A DNA stretch of 64,000 nucleotides from Eledone cirrhosa (Eukaryota), in NCBI GenBank assembly GCA_964016885.1, contig OZ024753.1:4712001-4776000 (forward strand), given 5' to 3'. Positions 3,432 through 50,803 of this stretch are shown here, piece by piece. The notes under the pieces are model-generated. The model did not search any database, had not been told where the DNA came from, and saw only the letters and a program-made list of their open reading frames with translations. Made by a program: the position numbers and the translations under genes. Each line of letters starts with the position of its first letter. The first letter of the stretch is position 1.

Positions 3432-3600
3432 AGGAAAAGGTTTAACCCCGACGGCTATTTCAGTCCAGAAATATCCGTCGAAACGAACTGAGCTCTGCCG
3501 TTGGGTTAAAGTTTTTCCTATTACCCACTCTACTACCCTAAATATTGAGTACTCTGGTGCGTTATGGTCCATCTGGTTCATTACCACACTTCCTTCGTTA
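3432..3600 (+). mobile_element. Short PLE pLTR fragment with partial hammerhead and inverted 5' end, in (TA)n
   Basis: Stem II-GAAA-stem III present, CUGANGA absent; 3432-3454 is an imperfect inverted copy of ~3495-3521; same family as 50599-50803. Confidence 0.7.
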
Positions 3601-4067
3601 TATATATATATAAGCAAAATGATTAAAGAAAGAGTTACAAGCCGTTAAATCATATCGTTATGAAGCTCTTACATATATATATATATAATTAGAACAGCTT
3701 GGATTGTTCAGAATGAAGGTAGCTATAGATAAACCAGTATGTTTATTAATGGATCCATATTCGGTTTAACAAATCACTATTTGAGTTTGCCTGAAAAATT
3801 TACTTCTTTTTCAGATTGAGATTGTTTGCCAGTACATTTGCACCATTTTGTTGTCTATTGTACTGTGCTACACATCTACGCATAATATGTCTATCACAAA
3901 ATGTTAATGATCGTATGAGTTCAGGAATATTAAATAAGGAAAGTGAAAGTGAAAATAGATTTAATCCCTTTGAGAATGCTCAACATCGTCATGATCATTA
4001 TCATTATCATTATCCTCATCTTCGTCATCAACACCATCGTCATTACTGTCGCCATCATTTTCATCAC

Positions 4068-4350
4068 CATTTAATGTCCACTAACCTGCTTGCATATGTT
4101 AGACGAGTTGTCACGTTCTAAATCTGATTCATCCTATGAACATGTCTTTCTCAAAAGTTTTATTTTTAGCGCAGTTTCTACGGCTCGATATCCTTCCTAA
4201 CACGACCCACTTTACAGTGTATACTGGGATCAATTTATCGTGACAACTGCACTATCACCTTACAGCTTCGACTTGGTTATTTTGTCGTGGCACCAACACT
4301 ACTGCATCAGGGTACAGACTGAGTGCTTTTCATCGTGACGCCAGAATCGC
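4068..4350. repeat. Diverged interspersed repeat (SINE/RTE-like 3' region) next to a (CAT)n tract
   Basis: Resembles, from memory, a common octopus repeat (GTTTCTACGGCT...CTTCCTAAC...CCACTTTACAG); has repeated TCGTGRCAC-like subunits. Confidence 0.45.
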
Positions 4351-4710
4351 TGAGGAGAAATTGATAGGAGTAGACCAACGTGGAATTGGAAGCGCCAGGT
4401 CATAGGATTGACTTAAAGGGAGTGTTTTGTGTCTAGCGGTATATTCTATAGCATCACTGGCATTATTGTACAAAATATCTGGGGTTTTTTTCTTCCACAA
4501 TTCTTTTATCAGGTTAGCTGATTTTAGATACCCCGTTCCTCCATGATTGTTGCGATGTAAGGGGAGGGGTATCCCAAAATCAGACATAGCCTGCATGTTT
4601 GTAACAGAGTACACCTCACTAAACATACCTAAATGTTAAACCAGACGAAGGGTACGGCCACCCACCGGAATAGTGCACAGTGTGATTTGAATTTAAAACA
4701 CTAATATCCA

Positions 4711-4800
4711 TAACAAATGCAGTAAAATATCAAGATACAATAGTAATGCTTAACAAATAACAAATGCAGTAAAATATCACGATACAATAGTAATGCTTAA
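4711..4800. repeat. Tandem duplication, ~43-bp unit x2
   Basis: TAACAAATGCAGTAAAATATCANGATACAATAGTAATGCTTAA twice. Confidence 0.9.
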
Positions 4801-48388: not shown

Positions 48389-48490
48389 TACAGGTGTCCC
48401 AAAAAATGTATACACACCTCAACATCATTCTAATCAATAATACCTGTATAGGTAATCAGAGTGTGTATACATTTTTTGAGACACCCTGTA
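48389..48490. mobile_element. Tc1/mariner-type MITE, ~100 bp
   Basis: TIRs TACAGGTGTCCCAAAAAATGTATACACAC and GTGTGTATACATTTTTTGAGACACCCTGTA; TA ends. Confidence 0.8.
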
Positions 48491-50260
48491 TATATATATA
48501 TATATATATATATATGTACGTATATATTATACAGTATATATATATGTATATATATGTACGTATATATTATACTGTATATATATATATATGTATATATATA
48601 TATAAATACAGTATATACTGTATATACATACATATATATATACTCATAAATGCCTATATCCATTTACATGTGTGTGCTTGTACGCCTCTGTGTGCATGTA
48701 TGTCATAAGAGCAATGATAATAAGTGGACAGTGGTCTAAGGTTTCATTTAGAAATACGAGAGATAAAGTATATCGTAAATGATTAGATTTGACACTTTAA
48801 TCGATAATATCTATATTACTGTATCAAACTTTCCTTGGAAGTCAATAGCTGTTTAAGTATGTAATAAGAGATCATTTAATATCGACGATTTACGGGCAAC
48901 TTTGATTCTTCTCAGGTGATAGCGGCATAGTTGATGAGATTTCTATTTGCTTTATGGAATGAAATTGATAGGTGTATCGTTGCTGTGAGATAGGTAAGCA
49001 AGTATGTAATCAAAAAACAAAACATTGACATAAAAAGTCTTTGTATATGTTATTTAATCACATTGTAAATATTTACCAGGTTTTTATGGATGTTTTATGA
49101 CAGGATTATTCAGATGAACATACACACATCTTCAAAAACGTATGTATATAGAAAAACGAATTATAGCCGACACTTCAAAGTCATTGCCAATGTTTTCTTC
49201 AAAAAATAATATATCAACTCTTCTTTATGTATTGAGTTCTCAACTAGTAAATGTTTAACTGTCTACATGTATAATTATACATAAAAGACCACCGTTAATA
49301 CTATGATATAATATAAATATATATACATTACATATATATATATATATATATATATATATATATATATATATATATATATATATATATATATATATATATA
49401 TATATATACAGAGAGAGAGAAAGAGAGAGGAAGAGAGAGAGAAATAATGAGAGCTAGATACATAAGTATCGATGTATATACATGCACACATATACAAACA
49501 CACTCACTTACTTTTATGTGTTTGGATGTGTGTCCTTGTATATATATATATATATATATATATATATATATATATATATATATATATATATATATAAGGG
49601 GTGTGTATGAACTGCGTATATTAATACCATATCGCTATTATGATTGCTTATTCCGCTTCGCGATTCCTTCATAATCAAAAAAAAGTTTTATTACTTTCCA
49701 TTCTATTTTGGCACACACTAACTCATCAGATTAATGCATACAACGTAATGCATATATATATATATATTTATATATATCGTTGGAAAACTAGTGTCGTAAA
49801 TAAGATATTGTAATATAAGTTTCACTTTAGTAGCAATAATAACGGTCCGTTTAAAAATCAGAGTTCAAGTGAATTGAAGCTCATTACAAAACGAATATGA
49901 AAGTCTTCCTACCTTACTTCAATTTTGACCCAAAATTCAAACGCGACAAATTTTAATAGAATAGAAGTTTCGGCAATATGAAATATATTAACAGTTCATT
50001 TTGTTCCATATCATATAATCATACGTCTGGATAAATAATTTCGGTAATAACAAGAGTAGTAGTACTCGTAGAAATTTGAGGTTTCATATTTGTTCTCATG
50101 ATTCCTTTTTGATGCATACTCTCATAGATCTTCATAATATGGATTCAAAATGTTTTCGATTTCGTTCCATAGTTGTTTAAGGTGAGTACGCTACATGAAC
50201 GTTGTGACAAGCATGATGATATGAAATGATATGCAGGAATGTATCTAAGATGAGAACCAG

Positions 50261-50445
50261 TTCAGTTCGAAATTCATCGACGATTGTCCCTCTTGCTTCT
50301 GCTGAACACCGCCAGGTGGCGGTAGCAGCCGGTGTTTTTGCATAGCTATGGCCTTCTAAATTATAAACATACCGTATTTCTTTAGAAATACGAAATTCCA
50401 GTACATATCTGTATACAGCTATCCTCGAAGATAAATTCTAATACT
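50261..50445. repeat. Dispersed repeat carrying a CTCF-like motif, copy 3 (inverted)
   Basis: Reverse-complement similarity to 514-675 and 217-362. Confidence 0.8.
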
Positions 50446-50598
50446 CTCTCTCTCTCTCTCTCTCTCTCTCTCTCTCTCTCTCTCTCTCTCTCTCTCTCCT
50501 CTCTCTCTACATATATATATATATAAATATATATATATATATATATATATATATATATATATATATATATATATATATATATATATATATATATATAT

Positions 50599-50803
50599 GA
50601 ACCAGTAAGACCCCGACGGCTGAGCTCAAGCCGTTTCGACGGCTAATTCTGGACTAGAATTAGCCGTCCAGAATTAGCCGTCGAAACGGCTTGAGCTCAG
50701 CCGTCGGGGTCTTACTGGTTCCTATTACCCACTCTACTACCCTAAGTATTGAGTACTTTGGTGCGTTATGGTCCACCTGGTTCCTTACCACATTTCCTTC
50801 GTT
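50599..50803 (+). mobile_element. Fold-back PLE pLTR fragment with partial hammerhead, in (TA)n
   Basis: Perfect 56-bp arms 50599-50654 and 50666-50721; GAAA CGGCU-UGAGCUC-AGCCG UC^; tail homologous to 3520-3600. Confidence 0.8.

Follow-up and report, generated by a model that had tools for sequence, protein, structure and literature searches.

A twin bulged hairpin in Hydra-clade Penelope-like elements, a putative RNA docking site that sets the reverse transcriptase start

We analyzed a window of 64,000 nt from Eledone cirrhosa (GenBank assembly GCA_964016885.1, contig OZ024753.1, forward-strand positions 4,712,001 to 4,776,000) that holds insertions of several families of Penelope-like elements (PLEs). 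Positions are window coordinates unless G000, our label for the searched genome assembly, or an L-numbered locus is named. An earlier note on this DNA had reported a hairpin motif, ACTC and GAGT followed by RCY, at five positions, and all five are borne out: 3527-3553 (+) and 50731-50757 (+), which are copies of one family (A), 13994-14015 (-; family B), 32323-32351 (+; family C) and 40885-40907 (-; family D). The note was also right to count four dissimilar families, and its motif is far from a chance event, the five matches comparing with a mean of 0.18 in local shuffles, none of 200 of which reached five. Each site is one arm of a head-to-head insertion in (TA)n. In full elements the hairpin occurs twice (hairpin 1, then hairpin 2) between the hammerhead ribozyme and the ATG of the open reading frame (ORF), and this twin bulged hairpin is likely to be an RNA docking site setting the start of the reverse transcriptase (RT), a putative role read from sequence.

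Both family A copies are head-to-head mini-insertions. At 3430-3601 the inverted short arm stops before hairpin 1, and the forward arm, which has a tail, stops before the position of hairpin 2; the sequence matched is hairpin 1 (ACUC / UAC..AUA / UU bulge / GAGU-ACU), as it is in the second copy, placed at 50599-50805 by end mapping. The motif had been described as following a hammerhead, and the hammerhead does lie 5′ of the hairpin, with only the 3′ half of the ribozyme left at 3527 and 50731. The family A hammerhead (3430-3500, 50599-50720 and L317) combines a variant core (U3-A8) with a long loop on stem II, and most family A mini-insertions turn back 48-78 nt short of hairpin 1, inside stem II or at its edge, and therefore keep only that 3′ half. 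The family B mini-insertion in (TA)n (13952-14140) has a minus arm with hammerhead and tail and a plus arm that ends before hairpin 1 (ACUC / UGC..GUA / UU / GAGU-ACC); its type I hammerhead is at 14038-14086 (-), with the cut predicted from sequence after 14043, and hairpin 2 of this family is reduced. Family B arms mostly begin 64-79 nt before hairpin 1, near the catalytic core. The family C insertion (32002-32419) combines a minus arm with a short end and a plus arm with a tail, the latter with a minimal type I hammerhead (32205-32269, +; cut predicted from sequence after 32262) upstream of the matched hairpin 1. A neighboring family I arm with a hammerhead (13694-13914, -; core from 13794) ends at the short site just before hairpin 1, and other genomic copies of that family have both hairpins.

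The family D element is the largest. Its inverted, 5′-truncated arm (40823-41746, -; by eye extending to about 41970) carries a minimal hammerhead (40957-41020, -; identified in sequence), a match to hairpin 1 (ACUC / CAA..UUG / UC / GAGU-GCU) and the tail. The forward arm contains a 5′-truncated and frameshifted PLE ORF (41877-43813, +) with Hydra-clade motifs, encoding RT, a CxCx5C linker and, at the C-terminus, a GIY-YIG-type endonuclease (EN), and finishes with a 3′ hammerhead and short end (45515-45625, +), 2-7 nt before the hairpin 1 position, so that no hairpin is copied. The long arm with the short end measures ~3.6 kb and the inverted arm with the tail ~1 kb; neither can therefore be a fold-back copy of the other, and two starts are needed. 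A looser pattern also matches at 41327 and 45188, both without the upper stem and within a repeat of the family D 3′ untranslated region (UTR).

A constrained spacing to the ribozyme was not found, the distance from the cut being about 25, 27, 60 and 57 nt. Nor does the motif lie downstream of all hammerheads: a hammerhead-first scan of 1.19 Mb of G000 (119 stretches of 10 kb at fixed coordinates) gave 45 ribozymes, just 7 of them with the motif as first described within 200 nt. Most of the rest are short-end copies, a long-loop family or a non-Hydra family, and this generalization is therefore rejected. The motif is placed relative to insertion ends and not to the ribozyme; thus, of the proposal of a second cis-acting module working with the ribozyme, a conserved cis-acting structure of PLE ends stands, and joint action with the ribozyme is unsupported.

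The hairpin-bearing families are Hydra-clade PLEs, as assigned by motifs. All those linked to an RT show motifs of this clade, whose features as listed in section 11 of Craig et al. (2021; PMC8557442) include RWK, DKG changed to DKT, and CxCx5C. An intact 717-aa family A ORF has RWR, DKT, CxCx5C, CxxC and CxH, with no CCHH motif seen on inspection by eye. At least one of RWR/RWK and (S/A)DKT is present in each of families A, B, C, D, D2, E, I, J, K and M, as far as the loci reach, and the CxCx5C linker is found in families A, D and B (in B the linker only), with CxxC and CxH near the C-terminus as in the Hydra clade. The 717-aa ORF and the ORF pieces of the window agree with a single ORF in which RT is followed by the C-terminal GIY-YIG-type domain; there was no Pfam match, so the EN assignment rests on motifs. 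An identity as Naiad or as a selenocysteine insertion sequence (SECIS) was rejected, the EN being C-terminal. The intact ORF lies uninterrupted in L317 (G000:C1:91,476,590-91,487,299), where at least four family A units follow one another in tandem, repeating every 3,542 bp; no RNA data set was listed for the family A junction. A first look for relatives of the window ORF in G000 gave 34,601 candidates, the 150 scored being 94-100% identical. An AlphaFold model of the RT (predicted local distance difference test, pLDDT, 91) is closest to telomerase reverse transcriptase (TERT) structures among the Foldseek matches listed, as expected for a PLE; no PLE structure was among those listed, and a sequence search found no solved structure. 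Hammerheads are present, and a TA junction in 130 of 136 copies identifies (TA)n as the target.

Between families the RT regions share ~35-65% identity, a range exceeded by sister pairs alone, and a clear alignment of the spacer after hairpin 1 was obtained for only 3 of 45 family pairs. Stem, bulge and RCY are kept nevertheless, with compensatory changes, so that the tails are not plain homologues of one family, the alternative that the earlier note had raised against itself. A spread of the motif across PLE clades, which the note had named as support, did not emerge, since we saw it only with Hydra-clade RTs and a non-Hydra family lacks it.

The hairpin consists of RCUC, a Y-R upper stem, a variable loop, a bulged U-H and GAGY, followed by an unpaired RCY. 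Stem and RCY are kept, as first described, while the supposedly free loop holds a covarying upper stem and the 2-nt 3′ bulge. Covariation was scored on hairpins picked by the RCUC and GAGY-RCY anchors and by position beside a hammerhead or ORF start only, leaving bulge and upper stem unused; 53 metagenome entries (one per variant per RT cluster) and 20 from ten G000 families gave 71 distinct hairpins, which were compared by anchored counting because MAFFT misplaced loop gaps. Upper pair 1 is Watson-Crick in 68 of the 71 (CG 49, UA 19; 41.1 expected), pair 2 in 50, with all four types represented (19.6 expected), and pair 3 in 38 (17.8 expected), values reached by none of 20,000 permutations, which ignore relatedness among the hairpins. 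Pair 4 is weaker (30 of 20,000 permutations reach the observed value), and pair 5 was null in this test, as were the 1-nt and 3-nt bulge registers, which gave no excess of pairing among the 71. The bulge has U in 70/71 and H in 70/71, and the base pair of the lower stem is G-C in 61, A-U in 9 and G-U in 1. In 178 relaxed matches from the sample and the window, an upper stem of at least 3 bp came with a 2-nt 3′ bulge in 78, and with one of 1, 3 or 0 nt in 7, 2 and 1. The hairpin is real and, judged by its conservation, functional.

When a downstream (TA)5 is required, the originally described pattern matches G000 36,629 times in the forward direction and its reversed control 595 times; on the reverse strand the count, 199,250, is inflated because one site can contribute several TA end points. 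In the 1.19-Mb sample there are 90 occurrences of the refined motif, compared with 2-7 in eight shuffles, and for 74 of them a TA run follows 30-85 nt downstream. All 150 listed of the 354 Rfam 15 matches in the window scored below gathering, mostly microRNA models on palindromes or simple repeats, and the double-hairpin region of L212 gave five weak chance matches and no family. A role as a second hammerhead substrate site was rejected, and a self-dimerising palindrome GAGURCYY fails for GAGCACU, the commonest form. Seven loci (L064, L066, L069, L146, L107, L088 and L148) represent a family in which the bulge is 1 nt, a U, and the first upper pair is G-C. L312, L313 and L314 have two hairpin-1-type motifs in tandem with no ORF behind, and are nested insertions or non-autonomous chimeras.

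In G000 hairpin 1 is ACUC/GAGU and hairpin 2 is GCUC/GAGC; this difference at the stem base, A-U against G-C, would disfavor cross-pairing of the two. The second copy was absent from the earlier note, and the two copies together explain the two types of insertion end. In 17 metagenome loci the hairpins are paired 58-83 nt apart just before the ATG, hairpin 2 preceding the next ATG by 7-39 nt, and 3′ copies stop just before either. Hairpin 2 of G000 was predicted from these loci beforehand and then found in families A, C, D, D2, E, I, J, K, L and M, with a spacing of 78-99 nt in 12 G000 references (58-99 nt overall). Among 30 family D loci in G000, 4 have both hairpins before the ORF and 2 more have the second. 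The double-hairpin pattern gave 622 + 605 matches in G000 against 152 + 31, some of them inverted or chance, and for family E the read-throughs numbered 271 against 0. Hairpin 2 would be left behind at insertion and therefore persist only in copies that continue across a tandem junction to the ORF; because this distal hairpin is not copied into the terminal repeats, the signal is easy to miss.

Ends were mapped for 136 copies kept out of 459 rows, after removal of 323 rows of a family L reference polluted by simple repeats. Fifteen of these anchored poorly and 6 had no TA junction, leaving 115, of which 110 end within 20 nt 5′ of a hairpin, mostly 3-10 nt from it (50 at hairpin 1, 60 at hairpin 2, 5 elsewhere). 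The insertion ends fall where the sequence is rich in UA and overlaps with the (TA)n target, and the commonest end windows, including TA microhomology, are -8 to -5 and -6 to -3 for family A, -7 to -2 and -10 to -4 for D, -6 to -4 for I, and -7 to -4 for M. In the metagenome five clean junctions lie at -2 to -4; of the 16 rows of that map 7 are cross-family or indel artefacts, subfamily differences blur 2 loci (L217, twice, and L224), and L244 is listed twice. The distance of the hairpin to the ribozyme cut varies, whereas its distance to the ends does not. We found 41 head-to-head pairs, and in the 34 with both arms classified, 33 are mixed, one is short-short and none is long-long (p = 1.6e-9). 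The PLE tail of the literature (described in the available texts of PMC3846280 and PMC8557442) is here hairpin 1 plus the spacer. Its description as an optional extension at one end of an inverted pair holds in 33/34 classifiable pairs, with a length of 58-99 nt and not 30-40.

The hairpin is distributed from corals to molluscs within this one clade of PLEs. Scanning metagenome contigs yielded 78 loci that belong to this RT group, in 42 RT clusters, 34 of which have enough flank. The motif occurs 68 times in sense and 5 times in antisense in the 78 loci, against 0-5 in shuffles, and is nearly always GCUC/GAGC; 24 of the 34 eligible clusters have a strict match. Among published Hydra consensi, in the parts seen, the hairpin occurs twice before the ATG in Hydra-1_Ajap and once in the tail of Hydra-2_Ajap and Hydra-2_Amil, variants are found in the copepod Hydra-1_Crog and perhaps in Hydra-1_Obim, and Hydra-1_Amil stops before the hairpin. 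Both hairpins are GCUC/GAGC in the metagenome loci and in these coral and sea-cucumber consensi.

Among the functions listed in the earlier note, RT loading or priming fits the data best. We suggest, with a probability of roughly 65%, that each hairpin is a dock for the RT, which primes a few bases 5′ of that hairpin from a target strand ending in TA, giving one cDNA per strand, the two being joined head to head. In such a pathway the EN would cut both strands of the (TA)n target, and an RT would be bound to each hairpin, possibly as the two subunits of a dimer. A TA-ending 3′-OH would pair with 2-4 template bases just 5′ of the hairpin. The cDNA begun at hairpin 2 would copy hairpin 1 and the spacer (the tail) and that begun at hairpin 1 would not; both would run 5′-ward and be joined head to head, leaving hairpin 2 behind. 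Copying the whole unit from a start near its 5′ end would need a circular or tandem RNA template, such as has been proposed (PMC4209133, in part). For one PLE, Poseidon_Ac, the RT has been reported in vitro to cut and extend both strands from two internal starts that bound the tail, to need RNA 3′ of the start and to dispense with ribozyme cleavage, and a dimer is predicted (Frangieh et al., 2024; PMC11167929, in the text available). More tentatively, the hairpins may form a bipartite RNA platform that loads one RT-EN subunit each and so programs simultaneous priming from both strands of the double-strand cut.

The ends could also arise if the hairpins were EN signals in single-stranded or extruded DNA, the GIY-YIG domain cutting a longer cDNA intermediate within a few bases of each, so that the ends would be resolution sites and not starts. 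We consider this unlikely. The tail is attributed to EN-mediated resolution in the main text of Craig et al. (2021; PMC8557442), the D. virilis tail had to be present for the EN to recognize plasmid DNA (cited in PMC11167929), and the strand preference seen in G-U pairs is weak. However, the ends of Poseidon_Ac match RT starts on RNA in vitro (PMC11167929, as far as its text was available), the TA microhomology between ends and target is typical of priming, one-of-each pairing (33/34) follows directly from two starts, and a bulged stem with free loop length is not a double-stranded DNA site.

Docking on sense RNA must also be weighed against a mirror image of itself, in which the hairpins are template boundaries as in telomerase RNA and a polymerase on antisense RNA or minus-strand cDNA halts 3-10 nt before a protein-bound stem, so that the ends would be stops. 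This fits the geometry equally well. An antisense template has been proposed for Penelope (PMC3846280, in part), in telomerase and DRT10 the template boundary is defined by a stem-loop (10.1101/2025.10.16.682844, in part), and the modelled RT is closest to TERT among the matches listed. We hold it to be quite unlikely all the same, since wobble pairs favor the sense strand 14:6, sense RNA of Poseidon_Ac gives starts at the tail ends in vitro (PMC11167929, again from the available text), and a copy that stops before hairpin 2 must already have gone past hairpin 1, yet every insertion combines the two kinds of end.

It is very improbable that the hairpins serve the ribozyme or translation, as a folding aid, in circularisation or in loading ribosomes on cleaved RNA, with ends falling at nearby AU-rich spots for other reasons. 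Such a role would suit a location between hammerhead and ATG, with hairpin 2 so close to the next ATG in the 17 metagenome loci, and it draws on the bulge triplet, which in the 71 hairpins is nearly always R-U-H, the hammerhead cleavage triplet. Against it, the hairpin keeps a fixed distance from the ends while its distance from the cut varies in the window, from ~25 to 60 nt; the two copies, each matched by an end, are left unexplained; in most families, judged by eye, pairing between stem I and the bases 3′ of the bulge is impossible; and H in place of G is also expected from register control. That the motif is a slowly decaying remnant of a common terminal repeat can hardly be maintained and is already largely refuted: all RT-linked carriers do belong to one clade by motifs, but for most pairs of families the flanks and spacers cannot be aligned, while compensatory change has preserved the pairing in elements from cnidarians, echinoderms and G000.

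Several observations weigh against docking of the RT on the twin hairpin. Family B has sharp long ends, yet the canonical hairpin 2 is absent in 12/12 read-through loci; there is a 4-bp GCRC-N5-GUGC stem (9/12), 6-7 nt past the end. Ten of the 34 eligible RT clusters have no strict match; by eye four of these have the motif or a variant, one is doubtful, four have no UTR, and one has a hammerhead with no hairpin after it. With relatedness ignored in the permutations, the A-U base pair, which is confined to hairpin 1 of G000, may reflect one event, and the wobble asymmetry favors the sense strand weakly (14 vs 6, p = 0.058). The probability of the lower stem in context by RNAfold is 0.03-0.95 (0.04 for hairpin 1 of family A, 0.03-0.05 for both hairpins of family I), so that the structure rests on covariation and not on stability; with such marginal folding of free RNA, the fold would need protein. 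The 1-nt-bulge family was not linked to an ORF in 82 matches, mostly into CT repeats, with 5 loci viewed. In a non-Hydra family (L003; DKSG, YVDD, Cx4CxxC linker) two ends that are just as sharp lie 60 nt from each other and the motif is missing, and the Hydra hairpin is not visible by eye in the ~96 nt of Poseidon_Ac RNA drawn in Supplementary Fig. 1 of PMC11167929. The motif is thus specific to the clade, the two-end rule extends beyond the hairpin, and two ends do not need this particular hairpin. In the loci of the non-Hydra family (L003, L058, L097, L135 and L010) both ends follow the same AT-rich word, one of each per inverted pair, and no repeated structure was recognised after the ends.

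The closest known systems are the Hydra-clade PLEs with a C-terminal EN, which, as described by Craig et al. (2021; PMC8557442, main text), share RWK-type and DKT motifs, CxCx5C, a (TA)n target, hammerheads, an inverted 5′-truncated arm and a one-sided tail. The published tails are 30-40 nt, compared with 58-99 nt in the elements analyzed here, and are ascribed in that paper to EN resolution; a term search of that main text for hairpin and for stem-loop gave 0 each. Poseidon_Ac is alike in its two starts bounding the tail, the extension of both strands and the requirement for RNA 3′ of the start, but belongs to another clade, has its sites inside the ORF, initiates in an AC-rich stem loop, and has no conserved duplicated recognition element defined in the available text of PMC11167929. 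The stringent long interspersed elements (LINEs) UnaL2 and ZfL2 have a 3′ stem-loop with a small conserved stem, a required bulge and a variable loop that is bound by the element's own protein and needed for retrotransposition (PMC1636434 and PMC4176376, in part). The PLE hairpin resembles it as a bulged stem near the priming site that is supported by covariation; however, the LINE stem-loop is single and, being 5′ of the priming site, becomes part of every insertion, whereas the PLE hairpin lies 3′ of the start and is duplicated, its distal copy being left out. Because the ends fall 5′ of the hairpin, it is not a member of the stringent-LINE class, although its action may be alike. The telomerase RNA template boundary and SL5 of DRT10 (10.1101/2025.10.16.682844, in part) likewise place a stem-loop at a fixed short distance from the template edge of a related RT, but they lie 5′ of the template and stop synthesis, and the PLE hairpin lies 3′ of the copied region on sense RNA. 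No description of the hairpin was found in the literature searched, including the accessible text of PMC8557442, PMC3846280, PMC7229834 and 10.64898/2026.07.22.740005, figures, several supplements, Repbase reports and subscription papers lying outside that search.

The window has some further features. A minimal hammerhead of another family at 22188-22211 (-) has an end ~90 nt downstream in a TA run and no hairpin, and a hammerhead-like core at 56880-56904 (-), which may be chance, also has no hairpin downstream. There is a tandem array of 23-bp period from 14751 to about 16200, and there are inverted repeats at 10687-11101 / 12968-13382 (415 nt) and 13389-13694 / 14365-14670 (306 nt), 96% complementary. 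ORF fragments at 17402-17851 (-), 47324-47632 (+) and 60338-60856 (-) are presumably pieces of retrotransposons without long terminal repeats, the only match being sub-threshold, to zf-RVT.

How PLE RTs choose their RNA, and why insertions have inverted arms and a one-sided tail, are open questions in the field; one PLE has been reconstituted in vitro, with no recognition element defined in the available account (PMC11167929). The hairpin is a candidate of 20-40 nt, supported by covariation, with a sharp positional rule, the start lying a few bases 5′ of the stem, and this rule implies that one end should shift or be lost when one hairpin is displaced or broken. The hairpin also offers a way to recognize Hydra-clade ends by sequence, one strand of G000 having at least 36,000 of them. 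If the tentative bipartite platform is true, it would be the first defined RNA recognition element in the telomerase sister group and the cause of the PLE tail and inverted ends, and the two-hairpin unit would be a short portable cassette directing unrelated upstream RNA into (TA)n sites.

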